From positions 1-53,631 of IMG/VR virus record IMGVR_UViG_3300031749_000457: DNA of 53,631 nt; one strand, 5' to 3'. Source of the DNA: a virus. Lineage: Duplodnaviria > Caudoviricetes. A program made the position numbers and the translations under genes. The notes beneath the pieces were generated by a model that was not told the origin of the DNA, made no database searches, and worked only from the letters and a program-made list of their open reading frames with translations. Shown here in pieces: positions 7,572-53,631 of this stretch (position 1 is its first letter; the number at the start of each line of letters is the position of its first letter).

Positions 7572-7864
7572 AGGTAGTATTTACGGATGTTGACCAGTGG
7601 TGCGAGGATGAATATCAGGAAGGAAGTTGGCTATCTGAGGAAACTGGTTGGTGGTATCCTGATGGAAGAATTCTGGTTTATAAGCCAGGAAATTCTTTTT
7701 TGCAGAGAATCGGGATAGCAGTGCATGAGTGTCTGGAATACATAATGATTATGAAACTGAATTGGATTAGAAACATCTCGCATTTCATAGCAAATGTGTT
7801 TGAGTTTGTAATTAGTCTTGGAACCGCAAATCAGAGCTGGGCAAGACAGGTCTGGAAGAAATGA
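7568..7864 (+). CDS. Small protein with HExxE putative metal-binding motif
   Basis: IAVHECLEY...ISHFIA; overlaps both neighbours. Confidence 0.6.
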   Translation: MKVVFTDVDQWCEDEYQEGSWLSEETGWWYPDGRILVYKPGNSFLQRIGIAVHECLEYIMIMKLNWIRNISHFIANVFEFVISLGTANQSWARQVWKK

Positions 7865-10800
7865 TGGGATTGCAAGAAAATTGCAGTTTGCTTACAGAAG
7901 GTAAATCTTACGGTGGGCGTAGAGTCTTTGCCTCTGAGAAGTCAATACTGATGTCTACACTTGTAAGGCTGATAGGAAGTTTGAAGGGAAACCTTGACAG
8001 GAAGATGATTAGAGAAGCTGAGGATTCATACAAGGCTTTAAAGGAAGAGTTCAGAGAGGCAATGTTTGGAATACTGTCTGCTTATCAAAATGGCCAGATA
8101 ACAGATGAAGTTCTTGAGCAGATGTGGAGAGGAGAGATAAAGGACGCTTGGGAAAAGGCATATATGTATGGTGTTAGGTCGGTAGGAAATCCATTTGGAA
8201 TCTGGGAAGAAGATAAGAGCTGGATAGCTGGGGCTGAGAGGGAGGAGTTTGGTTATCTCGGGAAATTTGTGGAGGACATAAAGAATAACGAATTGGTGAT
8301 GAGCCTTGAGGACAGGCTCGATATGTATATTGAGACGCTTGATGGAGTGTTTTATCACGGGAAGGTTGATGGGTCGCCTGAGTTTGTAAAGATTCACTGG
8401 ATACTGAGGGAAGCAAAGCACTGCCCAACATGTATTAGATTGGCAGCAGGAAGTCCTTATACAAAGAAGACCCTGCCATGTGTGCCGAAAGATGGAACGA
8501 GTGAATGTATGGTCTCAAAATTTACAAGCATATATACAGATAAAGGGTGGCTACCAATTTATAAGGTTAAGGTTGGCGACTTAGTCCTAACTCATAGAGG
8601 ACGTTTTAGGCGTGTCATTGGAACTTTGAATAATATCCCATTCAAAGATAGACGAGTTACCAAAGATGTTGTTATTGTATTTGTAAAAGTTGATGGTCGC
8701 AAAAGAGAAGTTAGTATCCCTGTAACAGAAGACCATGAATTCTTTATGGCTGATGGAACATGGAAAAAGGCTCATTTGCTGAAACCTGGAGATTGCGTTT
8801 CTATTCTTGGTAAGACGTGTAAATCTTGTGGCAAAACTTTTCCATTTCTTTATAGATGTAAAAAAATAGGAGAAAAAGAATATTGTTCAGCTTGTTGTAA
8901 TGTTCCTGCCAATAGAAAGGTAAAAGAGCTTGTAGCTTCCGGAGCTTTTTCCCCTCAACATAATCGTGGTAAAAAGCTGGAGGATATATTTGGGAAAGAA
9001 AAAGCAGAAGAAATACGAAAGAAGCTTATTGGAAAAAAGGCGTGGAATAAGGGAATTCCATTTGAAGAATTATATGGTGAAAAGGCTATTATCTTGAAAC
9101 AAAAATTTAGTAGTTTGTATAAAGGGCGTAGCCTTGAAGAAAGATTTGGGCAAAAAGCGTTAGAAATAAAAGAAAAGATATCTGGGGCGTCTAAGAATAT
9201 TCCGAGAGAGAAATTATTCGGAGGCATTGAAAATGCTATTAGATTAACAATTGAACGTAATAAAAGTATGAGAGGGAAGAAATATGAGGAACTATATGGA
9301 GAGGAAAGGGCTGCTGAAATTAAAAAGAAGATGATATCTGTTATTTTAAAACAAGGAGTTATAAAAAGGTCTTCTTTGGAGTATTTAATGGAGGGAATTC
9401 TTAATAAACTTCAAATTGATTATAAATGCCAAGAGCAGATAGGTCCTTATGTTGTTGATTTTGTTCTCCCTGAATATGGAATTGTAATAGAATGTGATGG
9501 AGAGTATTGGCATAATAAACCAGGGGTAAAAGAAAAAGACCTTCGTAAAGATGAATATATTAAATCATGCGGGTTTGATGTTATTCGTTTTGGAGAGCGT
9601 GAGATAAGAAATGATATTCAGAGTTGTTATGAAAGACTTGAACGGTTAGTTTCAAATCATGATGGAAGGTTTTTGACTATCCCTGCTGAGGTTGTTCGTA
9701 TAAAAAGAAGAAAACCAATCCGTGGTTCTGTTAAGTATGACCTTACAGTTGAGGAAGACCATAGTTATGTAGCAAAAGGCTTTGTTGTTCACAATTGTCT
9801 TTCCGCCTGCAAGTGTGAGCTTCGTTTTGAATACGCAGATGAGAAGCCAGCGCCTGAAGAGTTTGTGATTAAAGGGCCAAAGGAGCCGTATGTTCCGAAA
9901 GGTTATAGGCTACCAACGGATAAAGAGGCAGATAAATTGGGGGCAATGTATGCTGAGATTGAAAGGCTCCGTGGGTTGATAAATGTAACCAGTGGTGATG
10001 TTAAGAAAGAATTGATTCGACAGCGAAGGGATATTAATGCAGAGATGATTGATTTTATGGAGAGGCACAGGATTTATTGGACGCCTGGGAGTCAGGTTCA
10101 GAAGGTAAAGTTTATTGAGTCGATTGTTGATGAAGTGGAAAAAGAATTTTTACTTGAGGGAGGCCCGGGTTCTGGCCACTGGGGACATAAGGGTAGACCG
10201 GGGATAAGAGGAGGTTCTTTACCGAGTAGTGCTGGTCTTTCTTTAAGCATAGATTATAAAGCGCATATGATTTCTGCTGCAAAAGATTTGAGTAAGTTAT
10301 CTGCTAATGAAAGGTTGGATATTGCAGAGAAAGCTTCTTCTTGGACTCTACGTAGGCTTATTAATGATCCAAAAGATAATATAAGAGCTGTTGTTGCCAA
10401 GAGAATTAAACAAGAAGGTTTAAGATTAATGGTAAATGATGAAAGTGAAGAAGTTAGGGAAATTGTAGCAGCAAGATTAAAAGACTCGAAGTTATTAGAT
10501 AAAATGTCTTCAGATAAAGATCCCTTCGTTAGAGTTGCTGTAGCGAAAAATAAGAATACGAGTCAAGAAACATTAATGAAGTTAATCAATGATAGAAAGG
10601 AAAAAGTTAGGTCTGAAGTTGCTAAAAATTTAGATATTGGAAATTTATCATTAATGATAAAAGACGAGAGTCAAGCAGTAAGAATGGAAGTTGCGAAGAG
10701 AATAGACATGCCTGGATTGTATAAGATGATGCGTGACGAATCTATTTATATCAGGGAAATTGTTGTTAATAGATTAGATTATGAGGGTTTAAAGAAGTTT

Positions 10801-11640
10801 TTAACTAAAGAAAAAGGAGAAGACTTAAGGAAAGTAGCTGAATTAAGAATTAATAGAATAGAGGATTTGACGACTGAATATATAAAAGGGGCAAGAGATT
10901 TTTTAGATGGTAAAACTGATAAGTTGCCACCACTATCAAAAAATGCAGTCGATAAAGTTAAAAGTGATAGTGAATACAGTTCGAGAATGTTTGATGAGGT
11001 TTTCAATGGGACCAAATATGAGGAAATTCACAGACTTTTAAGAGGGCAATGGCTTAGTGATGCGAATAGTAGTGGTGCGGCTATTTTAAGAGATTCTATT
11101 AAAAGGCAGTTTGGTGGAGAGGTATATCATCACGATGATATAAAAGATTTTAATAAAGAAGTTAGGAAATTTTATAAAAGTTTAGGTTTGGGCAGAAAAG
11201 ATGTGGATAAATATGTGAAAACAGTTTATGCGATAACTCAACAGCAGTTGAATGCAGTATTCCCAAATACTGATACTATTGAGCTTTACAGAGGGACTAC
11301 TAATAGTGAGGTGAAAAAAGTTAGTGGTGAGTTTATTGCGAGGCAAAATTGTTTGTCTTCTTGGACTTTTGAAAAAAATGTTGCCTTTAATTTTGCTGCT
11401 AAAGAGAGGGGTGTTGTTGTGAGTGCTACATATAACAAAAAGGATATTTTTTGCACTCATTTACTGTATCATTATGGGGTTGAGAATGAAGCTATGGTAA
11501 TAGCTAAAGGAGGGAAAAAAGTTAAAGTTATTAAAGGCGAATATTTGGTAAAAGAATCAGAAAAGGTTTTACCGATTATTATAATTGACAAGACAGACCT
11601 TGATGGTAATTGGATAAAAAAGGTTAGGGAAGAAAAATAA
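7861..11640 (+). CDS. MuF-like head morphogenesis protein with intein, fused through the GGPGSG motif to HEAT-like repeats and an ADP-ribosyltransferase-like domain
   Basis: IHWILREAKHCPTC...PKDGTSE|CLSACKC (MuF-type Cys motifs after splicing); FLLE-GGPGSGHWGH at 10147-10224; repeats DxxxxVRxxVAxx; IELYRG, LSSWT, VENE catalytic-type motifs. Confidence 0.75.
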   Translation: MMGLQENCSLLTEGKSYGGRRVFASEKSILMSTLVRLIGSLKGNLDRKMIREAEDSYKALKEEFREAMFGILSAYQNGQITDEVLEQMWRGEIKDAWEKAYMYGVRSVGNPFGIWEEDKSWIAGAEREEFGYLGKFVEDIKNNELVMSLEDRLDMYIETLDGVFYHGKVDGSPEFVKIHWILREAKHCPTCIRLAAGSPYTKKTLPCVPKDGTSECMVSKFTSIYTDKGWLPIYKVKVGDLVLTHRGRFRRVIGTLNNIPFKDRRVTKDVVIVFVKVDGRKREVSIPVTEDHEFFMADGTWKKAHLLKPGDCVSILGKTCKSCGKTFPFLYRCKKIGEKEYCSACCNVPANRKVKELVASGAFSPQHNRGKKLEDIFGKEKAEEIRKKLIGKKAWNKGIPFEELYGEKAIILKQKFSSLYKGRSLEERFGQKALEIKEKISGASKNIPREKLFGGIENAIRLTIERNKSMRGKKYEELYGEERAAEIKKKMISVILKQGVIKRSSLEYLMEGILNKLQIDYKCQEQIGPYVVDFVLPEYGIVIECDGEYWHNKPGVKEKDLRKDEYIKSCGFDVIRFGEREIRNDIQSCYERLERLVSNHDGRFLTIPAEVVRIKRRKPIRGSVKYDLTVEEDHSYVAKGFVVHNCLSACKCELRFEYADEKPAPEEFVIKGPKEPYVPKGYRLPTDKEADKLGAMYAEIERLRGLINVTSGDVKKELIRQRRDINAEMIDFMERHRIYWTPGSQVQKVKFIESIVDEVEKEFLLEGGPGSGHWGHKGRPGIRGGSLPSSAGLSLSIDYKAHMISAAKDLSKLSANERLDIAEKASSWTLRRLINDPKDNIRAVVAKRIKQEGLRLMVNDESEEVREIVAARLKDSKLLDKMSSDKDPFVRVAVAKNKNTSQETLMKLINDRKEKVRSEVAKNLDIGNLSLMIKDESQAVRMEVAKRIDMPGLYKMMRDESIYIREIVVNRLDYEGLKKFLTKEKGEDLRKVAELRINRIEDLTTEYIKGARDFLDGKTDKLPPLSKNAVDKVKSDSEYSSRMFDEVFNGTKYEEIHRLLRGQWLSDANSSGAAILRDSIKRQFGGEVYHHDDIKDFNKEVRKFYKSLGLGRKDVDKYVKTVYAITQQQLNAVFPNTDTIELYRGTTNSEVKKVSGEFIARQNCLSSWTFEKNVAFNFAAKERGVVVSATYNKKDIFCTHLLYHYGVENEAMVIAKGGKKVKVIKGEYLVKESEKVLPIIIIDKTDLDGNWIKKVREEK
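8506..9795 (+). mobile_element. Intein (430 aa) carrying a Zn finger, NUMOD3-like repeats and a DUF559/Vsr-like endonuclease
   Basis: Starts CMVSKFTSIYTDKGW, block B VTEDHEFF, ends KYDLTVEEDHSYVAKGFVVHN followed by Cys; VVDFVLPEYGIVIECDGEYWH...KDLRKDEYIKSCGFDVIRF. Confidence 0.88.
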
Positions 11641-20064: not shown

Positions 20065-21099
20065 GTGAAACTATGTGGGTCGAATGTTATTGAGGTATTC
20101 TATAGCAAGCATGGTGACCCGCTGGAGATATATCCTCGATTCTGTTTTGATGAGTCGATGGTTTTATCTCCAGCAGCACCATGTTTGAATAAAGGGGTTT
20201 CTCTCCTTGAGCAGTTAGAAAAGAACCCAGAGTCTTCAGTTTGCTTCTTACGAACTTATGCTCTAGGAGATATTATTCTACTTACCCCTATCATCAATTG
20301 GATTAGAGATAAGTATCCATCGGTAAAGGTTTATCTTGCTACCGTTCCAAAGTTTATGGGTCTCTTTAAATATTGGGATGCAATCGAGACGGTAGATAAG
20401 CGTAACCTGCCATTTATTCCGTATGAAATTGGCTATTATCTTGATGGGGTAGTAGAGAGAGACCACAGCGGAAATGAATACAGTTACAAGCACAGGCTTG
20501 ATATATACTGTGAGTTTCTTGGTATACCGCAGATTAAAGACCCTGTGTTTTCACTGCCTTATGGAGAGAGTGAAAAGAGCTGGGCGGAGGGAATTGTCAG
20601 GGAGGTGCGAGATTGTGGGAAGCCGGTAGTTGCAGTGCAGGTGGCTGGCTCCACTGCAATTAAGAGTCTTTCTTTGGATAAGGTTGCCGATATAGCTGAA
20701 AGGTTATGCGATATATGCTCTCTGATTTTTGTTCATGAGGCGAAGGAGTATTTTGGAGAGATAAATGCGATGAACCTGACAGGAATGACTGATATTCATC
20801 AGCTTGCGGCATTAATCGACAGTGTAGATGTGGTTGTGACAATGGACAGCGGGGTTTTATGGATTGCTCATGCTACCAAAACCCCTGTAATTGCTCTGTT
20901 AGGGCCAACGAGGGAGGCTGAGAGGCTAAAATATCATAGAAATTATGTTGTTGTAAATCTATCAGAAATGGTTGGTTGCGAGCCGTGTTTTGAAAGAATG
21001 ACAAGATGTAAGGGGGCAATTAATTGTATGAAATCAAGTAGTGCGGAAGAAATAGCGAGGAGAATAGAGGAGGGAATTAAGAAGCTTGTATACTCTTAA
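20065..21099 (+). CDS. Glycosyltransferase family 9 (heptosyltransferase-like)
   Basis: RTYALGDIILLTP and VVTMDSGVLWIAHATKTPVIALLGPT; C-terminal CEPC..C..C. Confidence 0.88.
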   Translation: MKLCGSNVIEVFYSKHGDPLEIYPRFCFDESMVLSPAAPCLNKGVSLLEQLEKNPESSVCFLRTYALGDIILLTPIINWIRDKYPSVKVYLATVPKFMGLFKYWDAIETVDKRNLPFIPYEIGYYLDGVVERDHSGNEYSYKHRLDIYCEFLGIPQIKDPVFSLPYGESEKSWAEGIVREVRDCGKPVVAVQVAGSTAIKSLSLDKVADIAERLCDICSLIFVHEAKEYFGEINAMNLTGMTDIHQLAALIDSVDVVVTMDSGVLWIAHATKTPVIALLGPTREAERLKYHRNYVVVNLSEMVGCEPCFERMTRCKGAINCMKSSSAEEIARRIEEGIKKLVYS

Positions 21100-22048
21100 T
21101 GAGGATTTTATTCCTGAGATTTATTACGACAGAAGAACATGTGAGCCTATAGTTTCTTATAGAAGGATTAAGAAGGAAGTATATCATGAAGCGAAGAGTT
21201 TTAGTGGTGTTGAAGTTACAAAGAGAAGGGTTGCTTGGGTTCAGGATATGGTAAAAAGAGGAGGTGCAGAGATATCAAATGAGCTTGTGATTAAGGTAGG
21301 GATTGATTGCGGCAATGAAATTATCCTGGTAATAAATTTTATGGATGCGTCGGAAATAAGAAGAATTTTGAGAGAAAGCGACCTTATTATTGTGAATAAT
21401 ATTTTTCATTTCAGCAAAGAGCAGATGGATGAGATAAAAAAGATTCTTTTCACGGGTAAGCCGTATGTCAAGTATGACCATGATTTTAGAGAATTAATGA
21501 GACCAGAATTTGGGAAAGAGTTACTTGGGAGGTCGGTTTTAAATGTTTTTATATCCCCTCTCCATAGGGATGAATACCGAAGAGAGCTTGGTGTAGATGG
21601 AATATGCCTTCCACTTGCCATTGATGTTGATTTTTTTAAACCCGTTCCAGGAGTAGAGAGGAAGGAGAAAAGTGTGTTGGCTGTTAGGGATGGTGCAGAT
21701 ATTCAGTGGTTTATTGATGAAAACCCAGATTTTAGGTTTACCATTCTTAGTGATAGGCGAATTGATTTAAGTGGAGATAAGTTAAAGGTAATCCAAGAGC
21801 CGCCGTATGAGAAAATGCCCGAAGTATATTCTGAACATGAGTATTTTCTGTATTGCAGAAAAGATCTTGGGACTGGAGCAAGGGTTGTTTTTGAAGCAGC
21901 CCTTTGTGGGTGCAAGGTAATTATGAATGAGAAAGTTGGTCATAAGTCATGGGGTTTTAATTTTGAGGATGTAGATGGCCTAAGGGCAATTTTGAGGAAG
22001 GCTCCTTATGAGTTTTGGAGAGAAATAGACAGGGCTATAGGGATTTAA
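21086..22048 (+). CDS. GT-B glycosyltransferase (GT4-like)
   Basis: RGGAEIS, YDHDF, LAIDVDFFKP, PYEKMPEVYS, GARVVFEAALCGCKVI. Confidence 0.78.
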   Translation: MYTLNEDFIPEIYYDRRTCEPIVSYRRIKKEVYHEAKSFSGVEVTKRRVAWVQDMVKRGGAEISNELVIKVGIDCGNEIILVINFMDASEIRRILRESDLIIVNNIFHFSKEQMDEIKKILFTGKPYVKYDHDFRELMRPEFGKELLGRSVLNVFISPLHRDEYRRELGVDGICLPLAIDVDFFKPVPGVERKEKSVLAVRDGADIQWFIDENPDFRFTILSDRRIDLSGDKLKVIQEPPYEKMPEVYSEHEYFLYCRKDLGTGARVVFEAALCGCKVIMNEKVGHKSWGFNFEDVDGLRAILRKAPYEFWREIDRAIGI

Positions 22049-22983
22049 TGAAAGCTGTTGCTTATTTTCAGAATGGAATTGGGAATTTTGTATTGGCTAT
22101 GCCTTCGCTTATGGCTTTAGCTTCAATGACCGAAAGCAAGAAAATAGATGTTTGTTTGGACAACGGCTGGACGGATTACAGGAGAAAAGCAATCGAGGAG
22201 ATTTTGATTGCCTGGAGAGATGTAGTTAATAAGGTGGTTGATTACCCTGGAGATGGATTTGACATAGATGAATATGATTTATACTTCTGGTCTCCATTCG
22301 GAGAAAAGAATAATGAACTATCTGATAAATTTTCTAAAAAGCTTATAAGCAGAAACTTGTATCTTCCCAACTGGAGAGATACGGGAGTTCATGAGGCTGA
22401 TTATTATATGCAGATTGTCAGGGCTCAGGGCTTTAGCGGGAAAGCTCCAGTGGTGAGATTCCCTTTGGCAGATAATCCAGTTTTGGATTTGAAGAGACCT
22501 ATGATCGGGATATGCAATGGGTATTATAGATTGAATGGTTACTGGTCGAAAAAGGGGTGGCCGTATTATGAGAAGCTCTGTGAGGTTATGAGACTTTATT
22601 TTGATGGGTCTTTGGTTGCTGTTGGGTCTGAAGGTGAAATCATAGGAAACGATTATTTATCAGAAAATTATTGCGGGAGGCTTACAATACTTGAAACAGC
22701 AAAGGTGATTGCGCAGCTTGACCTTTTTGTGACGAATGATACAGGGCTTATGCATATAGCAGATATTTTAGGAGTCCCAATGATTGCTCTTTTTGGCCCA
22801 ACGATTGTTAGTAAGAACAGGCCGAGGGGTAAAAAGTCAATAGTTTTACGTGGTAATTCAGGGTGTGTTGAGTGCTTGCTTACGGAAAAGTTTAAAACCT
22901 GTGTGGATAATGTTTGTATGAAGTCAATATCGGTGGGTGATGTAATGGCAAAGGCCCGGGAAGTCTTAAGAGATTTTATATAA
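22048..22983 (+). CDS. Glycosyltransferase family 9 (heptosyltransferase-like)
   Basis: TAATG overlap at 22048; NGIGNFVLAMP, KGWPYY, FVTNDTGLMHIADILGVPMIALFGPT. Confidence 0.88.
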   Translation: MKAVAYFQNGIGNFVLAMPSLMALASMTESKKIDVCLDNGWTDYRRKAIEEILIAWRDVVNKVVDYPGDGFDIDEYDLYFWSPFGEKNNELSDKFSKKLISRNLYLPNWRDTGVHEADYYMQIVRAQGFSGKAPVVRFPLADNPVLDLKRPMIGICNGYYRLNGYWSKKGWPYYEKLCEVMRLYFDGSLVAVGSEGEIIGNDYLSENYCGRLTILETAKVIAQLDLFVTNDTGLMHIADILGVPMIALFGPTIVSKNRPRGKKSIVLRGNSGCVECLLTEKFKTCVDNVCMKSISVGDVMAKAREVLRDFI

Positions 22984-38925: not shown

Positions 38926-39078
38926 ATGCAGCTGACGGTATGGATAAATAAACCAACAAAGGTATTTATGGGGGGAGACCCGCAGAAGGGGCAGGTGCCA
39001 TTTACAACGCTTGAGCTGAAGAAAGCGCAGATAATCGTTGACCAGGAGAAGCAGACAATAACGATAATAGAGGAGTAA
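38926..39078 (+). CDS. 50-aa hypothetical protein
   Basis: SD AAGGAGG; MQLTVWINKPTKVFMGGDPQKGQ...; not in track. Confidence 0.55.
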   Translation: MQLTVWINKPTKVFMGGDPQKGQVPFTTLELKKAQIIVDQEKQTITIIEE

Positions 39079-39082
39079 AAGA

Positions 39083-40723
39083 ATGGCTATAACTTGGAAA
39101 AAGTTAGCCTTCGAAGATGATGTAATAAAAAAATCTATTATAAATGCCAAAGGTGATTTGATAGTAGGTAGCGCTGAGGATACGCCATCTATACTTTCTG
39201 TTGGTTCGAACGATAGTATACTTGTTGCTGATTCGAACGAAAGTCTTGGTGTTAAGTGGAGAGATTTTTCGCAGAGCTTTTTCCAGCAAGCAAGTATGTA
39301 TAGGTCGGGTTCGCAGTCTCTTGCTAATGACAGTTATACGAAAATTTTGCTCAGCAGTATAGAGTTTGACCCTTATAATATTTGCGATACTTCGAATAAT
39401 CGAATTCGGCCGACGAAGGCTGGATACTATTTGGTTAATGGTGTTGCAGCGACAAACCTCGGTGGAAACGCTATTGGTGGAACGTTTACTTGTTTTATTT
39501 ATAAAAATGGGAGCCAGTCGGGACATGGGACTGAAGTTCAGACTAATAATATAGGTTGGGTATGGAGTAGGGTAGAAAAACTTTTATATCTGAATGGTAG
39601 TAGTGATTATGTAGAATTATATGCATATCAATATAGCGGTGCGGCAAGGGATTTGCTTTGGGGAGCATTATTTGTTGTAGGTCCATTCAGTCAATCACTT
39701 TTTACAGGGCCAGCTCCGAGTGCATGGAGAGTGGTTAGTGAAGCCGATTTAACTAATGCTTCTTCTTATACATTCAGCGGACTTGATGGTAATGCTGACA
39801 GAGCGTATAAGATTTTGATAGATGGATATGTTGTAGGTTCTGGGTCTGTTAACTATTATCCTTACATTACACCTAATAGTGCCACTGGTGACACGTATTA
39901 CAATACGGAACATTATTCGACAGAGACAGGTCAAGGCGTTGATAATCCTTCGAGATCTGGGTTTGTAATAGGATATACAAGAGCTGAAAATTCAAATCTT
40001 TCATATAAGGCAGAGATAACTATTCCTGCAAGAACTGGAACGAGAAGGGTTGCTCATTCGTTGATGTGGCAGGGGTCAGAATCTGGAACTGTAAGGCTTA
40101 CTACTCAGACGGTTGGAGTGTGGGCTAATAGTTCAAGCAATATTAGTTCGCTTGTAATAAATTTTGATGGCACAACATTTACTGGAAAGATTACACTGCT
40201 GAAGCTAACAATAAATGAAAGTGGAACGGATGGATACTGGACGCTTGCCGGAAGTGTTTTGTCGCCTAATCAGTCAAATTGGGTTGTTGATGTAAAGGCT
40301 CAGAAAGCATCTATGTATCGTTCGGGGGCTAGTCAATCTATTCCAAATACTACTTGGACTAAGATACAGCTTAATGAAGTTAGTTTCGACCCTTATAGTA
40401 TTTGTGATGTTTCAAATTATAGAATTAAACCAACGAAAGCAGGATACTATTTGGTTATTGGATATGGAAGTATTGATTTGGCTAATGGTGGAAAGGTTTT
40501 TGTTGTAGCTATTTATAAGAATGGTAGTGTATTGGTCTACGGGACGGATTTAGCTTTATCATCTGGGATAATAGGTTACACAAGAAGTATTGTGTCACAG
40601 ATTGTTTACATGAATGGTAGCACTGACTATTTAGAACTGTGGTGTTATCAGGAGAGCGGAGCTGCAAGGTCGCTGTTATCAGGAAGTGAAAATACGTATT
40701 TATCAATAGTAGGTCCATTATAA
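39083..40723 (+). CDS. Tail fibre/receptor-binding protein with two C1q-like domains
   Basis: AKGDLIVG fibre motif; two copies of QSxxNxxxTKIxLxxxxFDPY...RIxPTKAGYYLV...YxNGSxDYxEL. Confidence 0.7.
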   Translation: MAITWKKLAFEDDVIKKSIINAKGDLIVGSAEDTPSILSVGSNDSILVADSNESLGVKWRDFSQSFFQQASMYRSGSQSLANDSYTKILLSSIEFDPYNICDTSNNRIRPTKAGYYLVNGVAATNLGGNAIGGTFTCFIYKNGSQSGHGTEVQTNNIGWVWSRVEKLLYLNGSSDYVELYAYQYSGAARDLLWGALFVVGPFSQSLFTGPAPSAWRVVSEADLTNASSYTFSGLDGNADRAYKILIDGYVVGSGSVNYYPYITPNSATGDTYYNTEHYSTETGQGVDNPSRSGFVIGYTRAENSNLSYKAEITIPARTGTRRVAHSLMWQGSESGTVRLTTQTVGVWANSSSNISSLVINFDGTTFTGKITLLKLTINESGTDGYWTLAGSVLSPNQSNWVVDVKAQKASMYRSGASQSIPNTTWTKIQLNEVSFDPYSICDVSNYRIKPTKAGYYLVIGYGSIDLANGGKVFVVAIYKNGSVLVYGTDLALSSGIIGYTRSIVSQIVYMNGSTDYLELWCYQESGAARSLLSGSENTYLSIVGPL

Positions 40724-40752
40724 AATAAAACAATTAAGGAGGTTAGAAGAGT

Positions 40753-41349
40753 ATGGCAATTACATGGAAAAAATTAGTTTTTGAGGATGATGTAATTCTA
40801 AAGTCCATCATCAATGCTAAGGGAGACCTGATTGTTGGGAGTGCAGATAATACGCCTGCCATACTATCGGTAGGAGCTGATGGTAAGGTCTTAAAGGCAA
40901 ATTCTGCAGCTACTTATGGAGTTGAGTGGGCTGACCCTGGAACACCTGGCACTCACCATACCACACATGAAAATGGTGGGGCTGATGAGATTAATGTAGC
41001 AGGGCTGTCAGGAGAATTGGCTGACCCACAGCCTCCCAAGACACATGCAACATCACATGAGAATGGAGGGGCAGATGAGATAAATGTTGCTGGATTGTCA
41101 GGGGAATTGGCTGACCCTCAGACTCCAAAGGCACACGCAACGTCGCACAAGAAAAGCGGGTCAGATGAGATTAAATTGAATGAGTTTGGAGACCCAACTG
41201 GAAACGTGGAATTTAATAAGAACCAGGGCTTGAATTTTGTTCTACATAAAGTTGCAAATGAAGCTGGAAGACCCACAACTCCAGAGGTAGGCCAGATAAT
41301 ATTTCAGAGCGATACGCTGGCTGCATACATTTGCACAAGTAATTCTTAA
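40753..41349 (+). CDS. Short fibre protein, paralogous N-terminus, His-containing repeats
   Basis: MAITWKKLxFEDDVIxKSIINAKGDLIVGSA shared with 39083; repeats HxxxHENGGADEINVAGLSGELADPQ. Confidence 0.7.
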   Translation: MAITWKKLVFEDDVILKSIINAKGDLIVGSADNTPAILSVGADGKVLKANSAATYGVEWADPGTPGTHHTTHENGGADEINVAGLSGELADPQPPKTHATSHENGGADEINVAGLSGELADPQTPKAHATSHKKSGSDEIKLNEFGDPTGNVEFNKNQGLNFVLHKVANEAGRPTTPEVGQIIFQSDTLAAYICTSNS

Positions 41350-41370
41350 TAATTAGAGGGGCAAAAAGAA

Positions 41371-41529
41371 ATGGAAGGCCGGCTGGATAAGCTCGCTGAA
41401 TTACATGGTAGGATTGTAGATATAATTAATGAAAGTGGCTTGGGGCCTGAAGATGTATTAGTAGTGCTGGAGATTATCAAAGCGGTAACTCTAAAGGCAC
41501 TGCTTATTATGGTTGGGAAGAATGAATAA
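41371..41529 (+). CDS. 52-aa hypothetical protein
   Basis: ATG after GAGGGG; not in track. Confidence 0.45.
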   Translation: MEGRLDKLAELHGRIVDIINESGLGPEDVLVVLEIIKAVTLKALLIMVGKNE

Positions 41530-41557
41530 AAATTAAACCGAACGGGAGATTTGTAAA

Positions 41558-41866
41558 ATGAATGCAGAATCTTACTCTTTTTTCAATCTTGCATTCCAGA
41601 TAGTGATTGTAATTTTTGGTGTAGTGCTGTCGGTTGTGTGGTATTTAACGAGGAGGTCGGTTTGGGGAGAGATAGATTTACTTAAGAATTCAAAGCAGGA
41701 TATTAAGGTATGTAATCAAATAGAAGAGACATCAAAAAGGGACAGGGCTGAAATAAGAGAAGAACTTAAAGAAGCAAGAAAACATTTGATTAGGATGGAT
41801 AAAAAGATAGATAGGCTGATGTGGGCATTGAAGATTGAAAACAATGACCCCAATATGGATTCATAA
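41558..41866 (+). CDS. TM + coiled-coil protein (holin-like)
   Basis: Single N-terminal TM then coiled coil, at end of tail module. Confidence 0.55.
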   Translation: MNAESYSFFNLAFQIVIVIFGVVLSVVWYLTRRSVWGEIDLLKNSKQDIKVCNQIEETSKRDRAEIREELKEARKHLIRMDKKIDRLMWALKIENNDPNMDS

Positions 41867-41905
41867 TGCAGTTTTCTAAAAAATCAGTGATTTCAATAAG
41901 TTAGC

Positions 41906-42026
41906 TTACAATTTTAGTCACTCCACATTACAATTTTAGTCACTCCACAAAAAAGTTTCAGAATCAACGATTTAAGAGATTTTCTTTGTAATTTCAAGTA
42001 GTTAGGTTACAATTTTTGTCACTTCA
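41906..42026 (+). repeat. 22-bp tandem repeat plus degenerate third copy (candidate activator-binding sites)
   Basis: TTACAATTTTAGTCACTCCACA at 41906-41927 and 41928-41949; TTACAATTTTTGTCACTTCA at 42007-42026. Confidence 0.9.
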
Positions 42027-42068
42027 ATTTAAAAAGTCGTAGAAAAACCTAATAAAATCAATAAATTA
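41962..42068 (+). promoter_or_regulatory. IHF consensus sites
   Basis: Exact WATCAANNNNTTR at 41962-41974 and 42056-42068; 1-mismatch copies at 41891-41903 and 41992-42004. Confidence 0.65.
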
Positions 42069-42082
42069 TGTCAGTTTAATAT

Positions 42083-42098
42083 AGGCACGTCGCTTGCA
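42083..42098 (+). promoter_or_regulatory. Sigma54 (RpoN) -24/-12 promoter
   Basis: AGGCACGTCGCTTGCA vs consensus TGGCACG-N4-TTGCW; GG 42084-85, N10, GC 42096-97. Confidence 0.72.
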
Positions 42099-42182
42099 TC
42101 CAAAATTAATAAAAAATAAATAAAATTAAGGAGTTAGGTCTTTGGAAATTCTGAGGGTTGAGGAAAGCAAAGGTTGGTTGGA

Positions 42183-42631
42183 AGAAATGGGAGCTGAGGT
42201 TGAGGTGATGAGCCTCGTGGCCCCCCACCCAGTCGGCGACTTGGATAAGCCAAAGGCGATCTGGGTTGCTCGATATGAAGGTGGTGAACGTAAAGTCACA
42301 TTAGGCTCCCAGAGTAGGTCAATTGGCTGGAGCTGGAATCAATCCCGTAAATCCCCTCATGAGGGGTAGGAGTTACGGCAGGGTAGCACAGCCCGATCTC
42401 CTGAACTAAGCCGTCCACCTGAGCAAATTGTGCTGAATGGGCAGGTGGTAAGCCCCGACTGGTGGAAGAAAGCCGAAAGCAGTCTGCCAAGGAGTGATGG
42501 CTGCGAAGGATTGCAAGTAGGCGATGTTGGCCGCTGTGGTGAGGCTCTGTAATGGATTCACTCCCCTAACAGATGACCTTGCTGAAATCCAGACAGTGGG
42601 CAGTCCAACCGAAACCAGTTTCCCCAATTCT
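42183..42631 (+). ncRNA. Candidate large structured non-coding RNA of unknown class (~450 nt)
   Basis: GC-richer than flanks, no convincing CDS, many nested helices including end-to-end pairing (see findings). Confidence 0.6.
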
Positions 42632-42649
42632 ACAAAAAGAGGGAAGAAG

Positions 42650-42835
42650 ATGAACAGAAGATTGAGAAGCAATTGGCCCGATGAAATTCAAGGGAGATAT
42701 GATGAGGGATACCTTTTAGGTATCCCTAAAGTTCAAGGTAAATTTAGATGTAAAGTATGTGGTTGGGTGCCGTATTTTAAATCTGAAATCCCAGCCTGGA
42801 AGCAATTGGCAAGCCATAAGGCATATAAACATTAA
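42650..42835 (+). CDS. Small C2H2-type zinc-finger protein
   Basis: ATG 42650 after GAGGGAAG; FRCKVCG...LASHKAYKH. Confidence 0.55.
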   Translation: MNRRLRSNWPDEIQGRYDEGYLLGIPKVQGKFRCKVCGWVPYFKSEIPAWKQLASHKAYKH

Positions 42836-42929
42836 GCCCCACTATGGGTTGTCCGTCCTGATATTATTATGGCTTGAAGTTACGCAGATGTTAGTATAAT
42901 CATATTTATAACGCAATTAGGAGGAAACT

Positions 42930-43166
42930 ATGTATCTCTGTAAAGATTGCGGTAAAGAGTGGGAGCCTAAGGGGATTTATGCTGGATTTTATTCCGCTTG
43001 TCCTAAATGTGGGAATTGCAACATTGAGGAAATGGTGGATTACAGGTGGTGTTCTATTCGTGGACAGAGAATCCATATAAAAGTATGCGAGAAGATTAGA
43101 ACTAAGGGGTGTATGAAAAAATGCCCGAATGGAAAGGAGTTCAAAAATGAAAGCAAGAAGGTGTAA
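42930..43166 (+). CDS. Cys-rich zinc-binding protein
   Basis: SD AGGAGG; CKDC...CPKC and further Cys. Confidence 0.65.
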   Translation: MYLCKDCGKEWEPKGIYAGFYSACPKCGNCNIEEMVDYRWCSIRGQRIHIKVCEKIRTKGCMKKCPNGKEFKNESKKV

Positions 43167-43247
43167 ATGTGGAAGGGTCATCACTTCTAAAAGAAGGAAG
43201 ATTTGTATTTGGTGCTTTTTATCTAAATGAATGAAAGGAGGAGTAAT

Positions 43248-43586
43248 ATGGAAATTAGAGGAAAATTAGCGAAAGTTTTTTCATCTCTTGAAAAAGATGG
43301 ATTCATCGCGAGGATGGACTGGAAGTGTTGTCAGACTTGTGGTTGGAATGCAATTGCTAATGAAGTAGAAAGGGCTGATTACCCAGTAAAAGGTGCTGTA
43401 TTTTTCCATTCCCAAGACGCTGACGATTTATTAGAAAGAGGAAGGGTTTATTTAAGTTATGGGTCGATAAATGGTGATGAAGAAGAAGATAGAAAGGTTG
43501 GAGAAATTGTCTGTTCTGCTTTAAAGGAGAGTGGGCTTAATTTTAAATGGAGTGGAAACCCTTCTGAGAGGATTTTAGTTTTTTAA
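43248..43586 (+). CDS. DUF6891-like protein
   Basis: FSSLEKDGFIAR..CCQTCG...VFFHSQD...YLSYG...WSGNPSERI; SD AGGAGG before ATG 43248. Confidence 0.65.
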   Translation: MEIRGKLAKVFSSLEKDGFIARMDWKCCQTCGWNAIANEVERADYPVKGAVFFHSQDADDLLERGRVYLSYGSINGDEEEDRKVGEIVCSALKESGLNFKWSGNPSERILVF

Positions 43587-45642: not shown

Positions 45643-46092
45643 ATGGGTTCAAATAATATACGTGCAATTAGGGAATTTAACAGGAAGGTCCTTTATAGGG
45701 CTTTAGGAAGTCTCAAAAGCGAGGGAATCATAAGGGTTTATGGACCGCCAATTGTTGACCGGTTGGATAGGTGGAAAGTCGCAGGTTTTTTAAGCCAAAG
45801 AGGGTATCGTGGTGGATGGAATGTTGTTAAGTGGAATTACTATGGGTTTTTGAGAAAGAGTGACGTTGCAGTAACTTTTGCTGGTATCGGTCAAAAAGAA
45901 ACTAAACTTGTTGGGAAGCGAATAGTTGAAGCTCTAAGGGAAGCTGGGCTTTCTGCTGATTGGGATGGAACTTTGAGGGGGAAGGTCATAGTTAATCTTG
46001 AAAGGCAGGAGTTATTGAATGGATTTCCAAAAGTTGTTGTTGATGTGTTTAATTCAACGATTGAATCTGCTAGGCAAAGGACGAATGCTTAA
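45643..46092 (+). CDS. Second DUF6891-like protein (divergent)
   Basis: ALGSLKSEGII...LVGKRIVEALREAGLSADWDG parallels 43248 gene (VGEIVCSALKESGLNFKWSG). Confidence 0.5.
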   Translation: MGSNNIRAIREFNRKVLYRALGSLKSEGIIRVYGPPIVDRLDRWKVAGFLSQRGYRGGWNVVKWNYYGFLRKSDVAVTFAGIGQKETKLVGKRIVEALREAGLSADWDGTLRGKVIVNLERQELLNGFPKVVVDVFNSTIESARQRTNA

Positions 46093-49772: not shown

Positions 49773-52220
49773 ATGCTCAAAAATAATCCCTCAAAAATAA
49801 GTCAGATTTTTTCGGCTTCAGATGTGAAACACGGCCTATCTCTTTTCACGGATAGAGAGATTAGAGCTGTGGAGGCCATGATTATAGAACGGGATGGAAA
49901 ATTTCATATCAAATGCCAGATCAAAGATAGATACAAAGTGGCAAAACCTGAAGAAATCGTGAGGCAACTTTGGGTTTATAGATTATTGAATGAATATAAC
50001 TATCCGAAAGAAAGGATAGATGTTGAAAGAGTGGTTTATTTTGGCTCAAGAGATTCTGGTTTAGCAGATGTGGTTGTCCTTCAAGAAGACCTGAGCCATC
50101 CATACATAATCTTTGAAGTAAAAAGGCCTCAAAGAACCGCAGGGTTAGAACAATTAAAGAGTTATTGTAATGCTGAAGGAGCTCCGATTGGTGTCTGGTC
50201 TAATGGAAATGAAATGATAAGGCTACACCGAGAAGAACCTAATATTTTCGTAGAAATTCCGAGAATACCAAAAGTTACAGAGACACTAAGAGACATTTTA
50301 ATTGAAAGATGGACACTTAGATGGCTTGAAGAGCATGATGAATTAAAGCAAGGTAAGACAACACTTAAAAAGATATTGTTGGACTTAGAGGAGCTTGTTT
50401 TAGGCAATGCAGGAGTGGATCCATTTGAGGAAATTTTTAAGTTAATCTACGCCAAACTCTTCGATGAATGGAGAGGGATTAACGACTCATCTTATCAGTT
50501 AGAATTCTTCGTTGGAGACAGAAGCCCAGAACAGGTAAAAAGAGCAATATCTAATCTTTTAGAAGGAGCAAAGAGAGAATGGCAGGGGGTCTTTGAGCCA
50601 ACAGATAAAATTGAATTGAGAAACGACCATTTAAAAGTTTGCGTATCTTTCTTAGAAAAAATAAAGTTATTCAATTCCAATCTGCGCATCATAGATGAGG
50701 CTTTTGAATATCTAATACCACAAGTTTCCAAAAAGAAAGAAGGGCAGTTTTTTACTCCCCGACCTGTAGAAGATATGGTCGTTAAAACGCTCAACCCTAA
50801 AGCCAGCGAATTTGTTATCGACCCCGCCTGTGGATCTGCTGGATTTCTTTTACATTCTGTAATGTGGGTTGCAGGCGGAATGATTAGCGGAAAACCTCTA
50901 CCTGAAAGTGCAAGAAACTTTGCTCAAACGAAGATTTACGGAATTGATTTTGCCAAAAAAGCTGTAAAGATAGCCAAAGCAATTAACCTTATTGTAGGGG
51001 ATGGCAAATCTCATGTCTATAAAGATAACTCATTAGCACCTCATACATGGGAAGATGAAACAAAATCAGGTTTAAGAAGCAGGCTTTTAAGATTCCCTGA
51101 TAATCCTGAAATAGATAGAGAAAATCAAAGTAAGTTCCTATTCTTTGATTTTGATGTCTTAATGACCAATCCACCATTCGCTGGGACAGTAAAGGAAAGG
51201 GATATTTTAAGACTCTATAACTTGGCTGAGAGAAACGGAAGATGGATAAACAAAATTGGCAGGCATATTCTCTTTTTAGAGCGTTCCCTCCAATTTATAA
51301 GACCCGGCGGAAGAATGGCTATTGTCTTGCCACAAGGGCTACTAAACAATACAAATGCTGAATATATCCGCAGATTTGTTATTGATGAGGCACGGATTTT
51401 AGCAGTAGTAGGCTTGCACGGCAACACTTTCAAGCCACACACAGGAACAAAAACAAGCGTTTTGTTCTTACAGAAATATACGGATGAGGAGAAAGAAAAA
51501 ATCCAACAAATAAGGCTAAAGTATGAAAGCGAATGGGAAGAATTTTTTAAAAGCTTAAAAGAAAAATATCAAAAATTGACTTGGAATAGTTCTTTAGATG
51601 AAGAAGAAATACCGGAAGAATTGAGGTCTTTCTTGGAAGCTTATTTTGAAAGTAGAGAAGAGGTTGAGGAATTACCAGTAGAAGAAACTGGGGTTGAAGA
51701 AACAGAAGAGACAGAAAAAGAGAACACAGAGAAGAAAGGGAAAAAAGAAATTAAAATTACACTAAAAGATTTGATAGAAGAGCTTAATAGAATTAAAGAG
51801 ACAGTGGAAGAAAAAAATAATCTACTGAATGCTTTATCAGATAGACAAGAAATCAAGCAACTTAAAAAAGAATTAAGAGCATTGGAAAGATTAGAAAAAA
51901 AGACTATAAAGGAAATTTCTCAAAGAACATTAGCAGGACAGATAAGTTTAGTTTTAAATGATGAAAAGATAACAGAAGCTTTTAAGAAATACTGGCTTGA
52001 TGGAAAAGTAATGCAAAAAATGGATTATCCGATTTTCTTTGCTGTCAATGAAAAGCCAGTAAAGGATGAAAGCGGCGAGTATAGATACAAGAAAGCACCA
52101 AACGGCGATCTGGTAATGGATGAACACGGGCATCCAGTAATTGACCATGATTTAGACGAGATAGCAGAGGCTTTCATTAAGTTTGCCAAAGGACAAGGCT
52201 TTGATTTTTGGAGAGGATAA
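49773..52220 (+). CDS. Restriction-modification enzyme: HsdR_N-like nuclease domain fused to N6-adenine methyltransferase
   Basis: KPEEIVRQ...ADVVV...IFEVK; GQFFTPR, DPACGSAGFL, TNPPF; acidic/coiled-coil insertion near C-terminus. Confidence 0.88.
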   Translation: MLKNNPSKISQIFSASDVKHGLSLFTDREIRAVEAMIIERDGKFHIKCQIKDRYKVAKPEEIVRQLWVYRLLNEYNYPKERIDVERVVYFGSRDSGLADVVVLQEDLSHPYIIFEVKRPQRTAGLEQLKSYCNAEGAPIGVWSNGNEMIRLHREEPNIFVEIPRIPKVTETLRDILIERWTLRWLEEHDELKQGKTTLKKILLDLEELVLGNAGVDPFEEIFKLIYAKLFDEWRGINDSSYQLEFFVGDRSPEQVKRAISNLLEGAKREWQGVFEPTDKIELRNDHLKVCVSFLEKIKLFNSNLRIIDEAFEYLIPQVSKKKEGQFFTPRPVEDMVVKTLNPKASEFVIDPACGSAGFLLHSVMWVAGGMISGKPLPESARNFAQTKIYGIDFAKKAVKIAKAINLIVGDGKSHVYKDNSLAPHTWEDETKSGLRSRLLRFPDNPEIDRENQSKFLFFDFDVLMTNPPFAGTVKERDILRLYNLAERNGRWINKIGRHILFLERSLQFIRPGGRMAIVLPQGLLNNTNAEYIRRFVIDEARILAVVGLHGNTFKPHTGTKTSVLFLQKYTDEEKEKIQQIRLKYESEWEEFFKSLKEKYQKLTWNSSLDEEEIPEELRSFLEAYFESREEVEELPVEETGVEETEETEKENTEKKGKKEIKITLKDLIEELNRIKETVEEKNNLLNALSDRQEIKQLKKELRALERLEKKTIKEISQRTLAGQISLVLNDEKITEAFKKYWLDGKVMQKMDYPIFFAVNEKPVKDESGEYRYKKAPNGDLVMDEHGHPVIDHDLDEIAEAFIKFAKGQGFDFWRG

Positions 52221-52221
52221 G

Positions 52222-53631
52222 ATGGCTGTATTTAGCGTTATAAAATTATCAGAACTTGAAGGGGCAAAAAGGATTGATGCCGAGTATTATAAGCCGGAGT
52301 GTTTAGAAGCTAAACAACTATTATTCAAAACCAATTCTATTCCTTTTAAAAACTTAGTAAAGGAAATTATCCATCCTAAAGAAATTAAAAGAGAATATGA
52401 AGAAGAGAAACAAGATTATTTGTTCCTACTTGCCCAAAATGCGAGACCGCTAATGCTTGATTTATCAGAAAGAAAATATATCTCAGAAGAAAAAGCAAAG
52501 CAAATGCCTAAAAATTTGTTAGAAAAAGGGGATATTGTACTTGTGAGATCAGGAAACGTAGGTGATTTAACCGTTTATACAGGCGAACCTAATAAATGTA
52601 TCGCTTCTGCCGATTTATTAGTGGCTAAGGTTAGTTTTAGACATCCTTATTATATCGGAGTTTTTTTAAATACATTTTTGGGAAGTAAATTTTTATTAAG
52701 AGGCATTTATAGTGGATTACAACCTCATATAGCACCAACTTATATAAAACAAATACCAATTCCAATTTTTTCTGAAGATTTGATGACAAATATTGATAAT
52801 TTATTTTTACAAGCACAAGATTTGTTAAAACAAAGTCAAAATTTTTACTCACAAGCCGAAGACCTCCTTTTAGAAGAACTCGGACTTAAAGACTTCAAGC
52901 CAAAGTATGAAAAAACATATACCGCTAAACTTTCTGATGCCTTCTCTGCTCATAGAATAGATGCGGAATATTTTCAGCCTGCGTATGAGGAAGTGATTGA
53001 GAAATTAAGAGAAAATAATATAGAATTGAAACCGCTCAGAACATTTATTTTGCGCATTCAAAAAGGAATAGAAATCGGAAGCGAGAATTACCAAGATGAA
53101 GGGAAGGCATTTATTAGAGTAAGTAATCTTTCTATAAACGGATTTACTGATAGAGATCAAAAATATCTAAGTGAAGAATTATACCAGCAATTAAGAGAAA
53201 CTTATGAACCCAAGCAAGGCGATTTTCTTTTAACAAAGGATGCAACCCCTGGGATTGCTTATGTTGTAAAAGAACAAATAGAAGGGGTAATCTCAAGCGG
53301 TATCTTAAGATTGCAAATAAACGAGAACGAAATAAATAATGAGTATCTTGCCTTGTGTATAAATTCCCTTATTGGAAAAATGCAGATAGAAAGGGATGGC
53401 GGAGGTTCTGTTATAATTCATTGGAAACCAGAGCAAGTAAAAAGATTAACTATCCCCATCCTCCCCCTTTCAACCCAGCAAAAAATCGCCTCATTAGTTC
53501 AGCAATCCCATGAGGCAAGAAGGAAGGCAAAAGAATTATTGGAAGTAGCAAAAAGAGCGGTAGAGATTGCTATTGAGAAGAATGAAAAAGAAGCATTGGA
53601 ATATATTTATAAATTTAAAGGAGATTTTTAA
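52222..53631 (+). CDS. hsdS: RM specificity (HsdS-like) subunit with two target-recognition domains
   Basis: Duplicated RIDAEYY/RIDAEYF halves, KGDIVL / QGDFLLTKD, IPIPI / IPILPLSTQQKIA; ATG 52222. Confidence 0.85.
   Translation: MAVFSVIKLSELEGAKRIDAEYYKPECLEAKQLLFKTNSIPFKNLVKEIIHPKEIKREYEEEKQDYLFLLAQNARPLMLDLSERKYISEEKAKQMPKNLLEKGDIVLVRSGNVGDLTVYTGEPNKCIASADLLVAKVSFRHPYYIGVFLNTFLGSKFLLRGIYSGLQPHIAPTYIKQIPIPIFSEDLMTNIDNLFLQAQDLLKQSQNFYSQAEDLLLEELGLKDFKPKYEKTYTAKLSDAFSAHRIDAEYFQPAYEEVIEKLRENNIELKPLRTFILRIQKGIEIGSENYQDEGKAFIRVSNLSINGFTDRDQKYLSEELYQQLRETYEPKQGDFLLTKDATPGIAYVVKEQIEGVISSGILRLQINENEINNEYLALCINSLIGKMQIERDGGGSVIIHWKPEQVKRLTIPILPLSTQQKIASLVQQSHEARRKAKELLEVAKRAVEIAIEKNEKEALEYIYKFKGDF

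Follow-up and report, generated by a model that had tools for sequence, protein, structure and literature searches.

A probable large structured RNA at the border of two gene blocks in a phage from hot-spring metagenomes

Does the GC-rich stretch between the structural and the non-structural genes of a hot-spring phage specify an RNA that acts through its own fold, or does it encode a protein, control the genes that follow, or serve only at the level of DNA? The initial annotation of this locus proposed a highly structured RNA of ~450 nt at positions 42183–42631, directly downstream of a sigma54 promoter. We analyzed the IMG/VR virus record IMGVR_UViG_3300031749_000457 (Duplodnaviria; Caudoviricetes), of which the window, that is, the whole stretch of 53,631 bases studied here, is the entire extent; its completeness estimate is 34%. 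We found that some kind of functional structured RNA is likely, and that it is a probable case of a large structured phage RNA that is both new and narrowly distributed.

The plus strand carries all long ORFs of the window. The record is classed as a provirus in IMG/VR; neither an integrase nor a host flank was seen in the 53.6 kb. Using Pfam and PHROGs, we identified an intein-bearing large terminase, a T4-type portal protein, a prohead protease and a gp23-type major capsid protein, followed by tail and tail-fibre proteins that extend to position 41349. On the 3΄ side of the structured region lies a run of small genes annotated without function and, farther on, genes for RadC, a RusA-like resolvase and a type I restriction-modification methylase, the structured region forming the border between the structural and non-structural blocks. 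Nineteen public runs are listed as containing the stretch (17 hot springs metagenomes, one aquatic and one microbial mat), none of which is on record as RNA. A 746-nt contig covering 42140–42533 was found in a run that is labelled metatranscriptomic but marked 'probably DNA'. A capsid search of GTDB gave a best match of 53% in a Deltaproteobacteria MAG and a weak match in a Methanoregula MAG, and identified no host.

Further features were observed elsewhere in the record. The intein of the large terminase gene (171–3392) carries a LAGLIDADG domain, and a 1259-aa protein (7861–11640) has, besides HEAT-type repeats and an intein bearing a DUF559/endonuclease domain, a C-terminal DRAT-like ADP-ribosyltransferase domain. 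Two family-9 glycosyltransferase (heptosyltransferase-like) genes and an ORF with a DOT1-like methyltransferase fold (20065–22983) immediately follow the major capsid gene, an arrangement that could mean that the virion is modified. The two tail-fibre-like genes (39077–41349) have their first ~128 nt in common at 73% identity; the first contains an internal duplication ~1020 nt apart and the second a 90-nt tandem repeat at 40964–41143. The gene run after the structured region includes two DUF6891 proteins (43227–43586 and 45643–46092) and several small zinc-ribbon-like proteins, and at the right end of the record (49773–53631) the type I methylase is fused to an HsdR N-terminal domain and accompanied by a specificity subunit.

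A search of the JGI metagenomes with the pseudo-ORF of the region returned two loci, L010 and L011. The comparative alignment accordingly consisted of three DNA sequences: the window, L010 (95% identical) and L011 (88.5% identical in the core). Variants in runs designated X2, X5, X7 and X15 were among the differences listed. The features of the locus and its surroundings are as follows.

41887–42034, plus strand: three direct copies of an operator-like repeat of ~22 nt, starting at 41887, 41909 and 41988, in a tract with a GC content of 0.285–0.30
42084–42097, plus strand: sigma54-type –24/–12 element, GGCACG-N4-TTGC, its single exact occurrence in the 53.6 kb (0.04 expected)
42100–42180, plus strand: swappable leader, replaced in X7 and represented by unrelated sequence in the X2 and X5 contigs
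42181–42618, plus strand: predicted structured-RNA core, defined by its identity in L011, the limits of homology and mutation-placement tests
42650–42835, plus strand: first gene after the RNA, encoding a 61-aa CxxC protein (ATG start, GAGGGA upstream, no Pfam match)

The identity of 88.5% between the core (~42181–42618) and L011 compares with 78.0% and 77.1% for two upstream ORFs; as far as these aligned sequences go, the core is better conserved than the neighbouring genes. The promoter-like site and leader are 90% identical in L011, and beyond 42615 identity falls to ~40%. A block of 55 nt (42399–42453) is invariant in the three sequences, with 0 differences in 42400–42449. The flanks, in contrast, were exchanged in other hot-spring runs while the core was kept. 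In X7, positions 42100–42179 are replaced by 102 other letters and 42615–42657 by 185; the X2 and X5 contigs have unrelated sequence before 42181; and L011 contains ~250 extra nt after 42618, including an 83-codon ORF (L011 1989–2240) placed between the RNA and the gene of the 61-aa protein, which is conserved in all variants seen. Homology ends near 42614–42618 in both L011 and X7. The extent proposed initially, 42183–42631, is thus close to the conserved unit. The X7 and L011 contigs keep the same outer neighbours on both sides, and this indicates an element that occupies one genomic site and is not mobile; a MITE or other mobile element was rejected on the same observation and on the presence of a single copy in the record.

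The element has a narrow distribution. No match was obtained by blastn among GenBank phages; searches of IMG/VR with a 34-nt, a gapped and a 24-nt pattern gave 0 loci each, as did those with the pseudo-ORF and with the downstream 61-aa protein, and the 24-nt pattern gave none in GTDB genomes. Of two neighbouring proteins searched in IMG/VR, that of 358 aa gave 0 loci and that of 225 aa one distant locus. About six variants were found in all databases searched, by protein-cluster look-ups and one homology search. The element was absent by blastn from the two nearest phages found (capsid protein 75–77% identical), in which the syntenic region has AT-rich gene-free gaps instead, and two covariance models (R1 and R2) run over 242 kb including these two phages matched only the window itself.

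We then compared base composition and folding with the initial description. The compositional contrast noted there was reproduced: GC content was 0.54–0.55 in 200-nt windows across 42200–42599 and 0.29–0.42 around them. The record has no stronger GC island (~55% against 41% overall, and 0.29–0.32 just upstream); the G-over-C skew here is 0.13–0.17, below that of the neighbouring genes. All nine complementary segments listed as nested pairings were recovered in place and pair as claimed. In the last helix, however, the pairing is present but C42547 had been counted twice, and CTGT/ACAG requires a shift of one base. By our estimate, isolated complements of 7–8 bp are expected by chance in 450 nt.

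The claim that the region is highly structured fared less evenly when folding energies were compared with those of shuffled sequences. On the plus strand, 42140–42650 had a minimum free energy (MFE) of –177.8 (z = –1.51), and 8 of 100 shuffles folded as well; z was –1.04 for the minus strand. For the originally noted span (42183–42631), z was –1.31, with 11 of 100 shuffles as good. The window copy therefore barely exceeds its controls and, by free energy, is not clearly more structured than chance, whereas none of 100 shuffles was as good as the L011 copy (z = –2.69). Taken alone, the window copy comes close to one of the refuting outcomes named in the initial annotation, a folding energy that does not surpass shuffled controls. 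The structured-RNA observation was upheld despite the weak energy of the window copy because of the comparative data, namely this L011 value and the substitutions of L011 described below.

We predicted the fold from the window alone, threaded the L011 substitutions onto it and compared the outcome with the same changes placed randomly on bases of the same kind. On the plus strand, the threaded energy with the 36 core substitutions of L011 was –141.7 kcal/mol, compared with –118.3 ± 8.4 for random placements, of which 2 of 1000 were as good; when the substituted mutant was folded anew, its own MFE was below those of all 50 random mutants folded. A separate placement analysis agreed with this result. 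In the controls, random placements were as good in 207 of 1000 cases on the minus strand and in 502 of 1000 in an upstream coding region. That only the plus strand passes this test is explained by the fact that most changes go through G·U pairs. Twenty-five of the 36 substitutions fall on paired positions, and since 63% of positions are paired, stems are not avoided. Among the 25 pairs touched in L011, 18 were kept and 7 broken, while the null sets broke 12.3 ± 2.2 (7 or fewer in 85 of 5000). L010 alone kept 4 of 6 touched pairs, which was not significant (419 of 5000 null sets). Covariation did not add to this, because with only three sequences its controls cannot be exceeded: the observed values were reached by 147 of 500 shuffles for the originally noted model and 337 of 500 for the MFE model, and each model contained one two-sided compensatory change. 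The plus-strand fold was spared in the placement test, and these results support the idea that the L011 substitutions preserve this predicted fold beyond chance, as judged from one divergent homologue.

The predicted fold contains the following parts.

42189–42196, plus strand: 5΄ strand of the closing helix, pairing with 42616–42624, at which the MFE structure of 42183–42631 closes the whole fold
42225–42284, plus strand: long hairpin A, 25 pairs
42309–42336, plus strand: variable hairpin B, changed in L011 and X2
42345–42378, plus strand: hairpin C, with an inner palindromic hairpin (42353–42366) and a compensatory change in L011
42399–42453, plus strand: the 55-nt block that is invariant in the alignment, including hairpin D (42415–42421/42442–42448) with a 20-nt loop
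42479–42514, plus strand: hairpin E, distinguished by its substitution pattern in L011
42527–42603, plus strand: long irregular hairpin F, with pairs kept and an invariant internal region (42558–42600)

In L011, the complementarity of the closing helix appears by eye to be kept through a G·U to G-C change and a shifted bulge, despite the ~40% identity of the 3΄ flank. The tip of hairpin A (42249–42258) is exactly the 10 nt deleted in L011; at 42238 and 42241, both L010 and L011 show G·U to A-U and U·G to C-G changes, and the hairpin has two broken cells in the three-sequence alignment. Hairpin B carries five L011 substitutions at 42324–42329, two of which strengthen pairs and one of which breaks a pair, and the X2 contig lacks 4 nt of its loop at 42319–42324. 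The compensatory change in hairpin C is a two-sided C-G to U-A replacement in the inner stem, accompanied by a 2-nt deletion in the loop, and the outer stem shows U-A to U·G. Since nothing varies in the invariant block, the pairing of hairpin D is neither supported nor opposed. In hairpin E, the L011 changes at 42482 and 42485 (G·U to A-U and U·G to C-G) make the stem all Watson-Crick; in hairpin F, the variable pairs at 42533, 42540, 42547 and 42601 are all still paired (4/4). Together, hairpins E and F show six wobble/Watson-Crick interchanges and no break. The pair 42220/42296 reads G·U, A-U and G-C across the three sequences.

The long-range architecture first proposed was only partly borne out in this alignment, with eight variable pairs kept and six further pairs showing a broken cell. 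Broken cells affect the GAGCCTC/GAGGCTC and GGTTG/CAACC helices, and both the 42258/42398 helix and the last one are affected in their outer parts. In a model with more local hairpins, 20 pairs were kept versus 8 broken. Segment 42455–62 has two candidate partners, 42229–36 and 42615–20, both compatible with L011; for the latter, L011 shows an A-U to G-C double change at a place where the alignment is uncertain.

Could the region instead be a small protein gene, of 75 codons from TTG 42142 or of 136 codons if TAG 42367 were read through? An SD-like AAGGAG lies 8 nt before this TTG, and both motifs are also present in L011, L010 and X15. From the TTG, 75 codons precede the TAG and a further 60 open codons follow it, and JGI annotates the pseudo-ORF as a hypothetical protein. 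Its GC content by codon position (0.62/0.49/0.52) follows the order GC1 > GC3 > GC2, like that of the phage's genes. Against this reading, the L011 copy has frameshifting indels (–10, +1, –2 and –1) relative to the window, and its ORF stops elsewhere. The 33 in-frame substitutions of L011 are distributed over codon positions 1/2/3 as 14/11/8, with no third-position excess (7/0/2 in L010), and in our own codon reading 6 of 8 changes in the first 107 nt of the frame are non-synonymous. In the 55-nt block, not even third positions vary, and the start region is replaced in variants. The indels, the 14/11/8 pattern and the invariant block point to constraint on the nucleotide sequence and not on a protein. 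Recoding of TAG was considered and rejected, because TAG is the working stop of 12 of 52 genes.

Database comparisons agreed with this result. When the read-through product was compared by HMMER with 1.84 billion proteins, three matches were obtained (two short ORFs called on the element itself and one spurious repeat protein) and thus no relative outside the element; Pfam, run on 10 ORF translations from both strands, returned only a sub-threshold Kv2channel match (E = 0.38, 10.5 bits, cutoff 25). One 90% protein cluster joins the 47-aa ORF fragment P0003 with a 455-aa protein to which it has no visible resemblance, and looks like a clustering artefact. The region is non-coding, the frameshifts, the substitution pattern and the lack of outside relatives bearing out the earlier remark that its ORFs look spurious, and we regard a protein gene here as extremely improbable.

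We next asked whether the RNA belongs to a known family. With cmscan, none of the 4227 models of Rfam 15 reached its gathering score anywhere in the window; this set includes RNase P, tmRNA, SRP, 6S and group I/II introns, as well as ROOL, GOLLD, OLE, HEARO, raiA, riboswitches and self-cleaving ribozymes. At E ≤ 10, searches of 1201 nt, 521 nt and the L011 copy returned chance matches only (11.6–24.2 bits against thresholds of 40–86), mostly to snoRNA and lncRNA models. ARAGORN found 0 tRNA or tmRNA genes in the window. The element lies outside all Rfam families, and the initial statement that it could not be matched to RNase P, tmRNA or a group I/II intron holds. In the parts of the literature available to our search, we found nothing on an RNA of this sequence or on sigma54 control of thermophilic phages.

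Other element classes were considered and rejected. The core is not the template repeat of a diversity-generating retroelement, because it has no above-chance similarity elsewhere in the window; no repeat family joins it to the tail-fibre genes, and no RT domain was found. An RNase P-like P4 pairing (42160–74/42577–84) was seen by eye only, had no support from a model and has its 5΄ partner in the swappable leader. In our own reading, the L011 flanks yield no conserved product, as would be required of an intron with in-frame exons. GGA motifs are about as numerous, by our own count, as composition predicts, which does not suit a CsrA-type sponge, and pairing in trans to phage messages gave only chance-level matches.

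The surroundings of the core bear on how such an RNA might be expressed. The exact GGCACG-N4-TTGC match, in which GG at –24 and GC at –12 have the canonical spacing, precedes the core by 86 nt, so the position downstream of a sigma54-type motif stands as first described. L011 keeps GG and TTGCA of this site at the same spacing, and AG replaces the –24 GG in the short X15 contig. No sigma54-activator domain was found among 54 ORFs scanned in this record of 34% completeness. Motifs related to the ~22-nt repeat are kept in L011; the three repeats could be activator sites, repressor sites or iterons.

On the available comparisons, we tentatively prefer the idea that the core is an autonomous RNA module acting through its own fold, although we give this idea somewhat less than an even chance. 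The observation behind it is that the leader and spacer are exchanged while the core is kept. The ~440-nt non-coding domain on the plus strand would fold independently, the terminal helix 42189–96/42616–24 closing a fold with at least six hairpins inside. Transcription would run rightward from the promoter region at ~42084–42097, and the RNA would form the first part of a transcript that continues into the small non-structural genes, from which it would probably be released by processing. It may act as a stable scaffold or protein-binding RNA, with no switch pairing to a neighbouring ribosome-binding site.

The absence of terminator-like sites in 41300–43300, and hence between the core and the next gene, means that the RNA may simply be a 5΄ leader, a folded segment that stays on the mRNA of the downstream operon and controls it in cis. 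Such a leader might allow RNA polymerase to pass termination signals, in the manner of HK022 put RNA, stabilize the message against heat, or sense a ligand or temperature, and the common direction of all genes and the promoter-like site before the core are in keeping with it. However, the start codon lies 27 nt from the core in the window, whereas L011 has ~250 nt and an additional ORF in between and X7 a different sequence of 185 letters; that neither spacing nor sequence is kept argues against occlusion of a ribosome-binding site. Nor would the core begin the transcript: an exchangeable leader precedes it. It is also several times longer than the known antiterminator RNAs. We consider a cis-acting leader unlikely, though worth serious consideration; the autonomous module was preferred to it because a closing helix of its own delimits the core and the core sequence is kept despite the flank swaps.

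The AT-rich tract with its three direct repeats directly upstream, the promoter-like site pointing into a GC-rich, G-skewed non-coding stretch and the location at the gene-block border would also suit a replication origin, in which the repeats are iterons, the tract is an unwinding element and the G-rich RNA primes synthesis via an R-loop. However, no replication gene was identified adjacent to it, the cumulative GC skew does not turn here and transcription would run away from the repeats, and we regard an origin transcript as very unlikely. Finally, the apparent fold could be a by-product of GC richness in a region with no RNA function, either a DNA-level element or a foreign remnant (a pseudogene, a mobile-element scar or a protein-binding region). 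The weak z-scores of the window copy, the tiny family, which close relatives lack, and the terminal complementary arms, readable as inverted repeats, speak for such a reading. In contrast, sparing of the fold on the plus but not the minus strand, through G·U pairs, is not expected of a DNA-level palindrome; the element is a single copy at the same genomic position in the flank-bridging variants X7 and L011, has no similarity to the rest of the window and is better conserved than the neighbouring genes. This explanation is improbable in our judgment.

Large phage-borne structured RNAs are already known as a kind, and no Rfam family fits the present RNA. Like ROOL and GOLLD, it is a large (>400 nt), multi-domain, phage-borne non-coding RNA in a gene-free stretch, described, as they were at discovery, without a function. 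However, neither covariance model matches at gathering score or at E ≤ 10, the present RNA is shorter than both and no tRNA genes lie nearby. In PNAS in 2002, Klein, Misulovin and Eddy reportedly showed that GC-rich islands in the AT-rich DNA of thermophiles mark RNA genes. The sharp island observed here (55% versus 41%), in a sequence listed mostly for hot-spring runs (17 of 19) and with no coding signal, is similar, whereas those islands belong to cellular hyperthermophiles and known RNA classes, unlike this unclassified RNA of a phage.

The putL and putR RNAs of HK022, and other leader RNAs that head the early operons of phages, are likewise folded RNAs that follow a promoter, here a promoter-like site, with genes on the same strand and no terminator between. 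The present RNA differs in being ~six times longer, in not lying at the very 5΄ end and in its exchangeable flanks, and we identified no terminators for it to act on. It may be likened to the pRNA of phi29, a phage-encoded structural RNA with a conserved fold that acts with proteins and not by pairing to a message. The phi29 pRNA is ~170 nt long and occurs in phi29-like podophages, whereas the portal and capsid proteins found here are T4-type, and no Rfam match was obtained; we know of no packaging RNA in phages with a portal and capsid of the T4 type. With ColE1 RNA II and the T4 origin transcripts, it would have in common a structured G-rich transcript beside repeats and an AT-rich tract, but the orientation relative to the repeats is different.

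To our knowledge, bacterial and phage RNAs of more than ~400 nt with complex folds are rare, and nearly every large class that we know of (RNase P, group I/II introns, OLE, GOLLD, ROOL and IscB guide RNAs) is a ribozyme, a ribonucleoprotein core or part of a large assembly. It is possible, although we hold it to be rather doubtful, that the present RNA is the founding member of a new class: a large heat-stable autonomous phage RNA of ~440 nt, catalytic or ribonucleoprotein in nature, expressed from an enhancer-dependent sigma54 promoter at the border of late and early genes. If this is true, an RNA from a thermophilic phage would be naturally heat-stable and suited to structural work, and it would be coupled to an apparent sigma54-type promoter; within the portions of the literature that our search reached, no description of sigma54-type control of lytic phage early genes was found. 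For annotation, our analysis argues against the hypothetical protein assigned here by public gene callers. This RNA may be one case of a wider, undescribed habit of phages, in which early transcripts are opened by large ornate RNAs.
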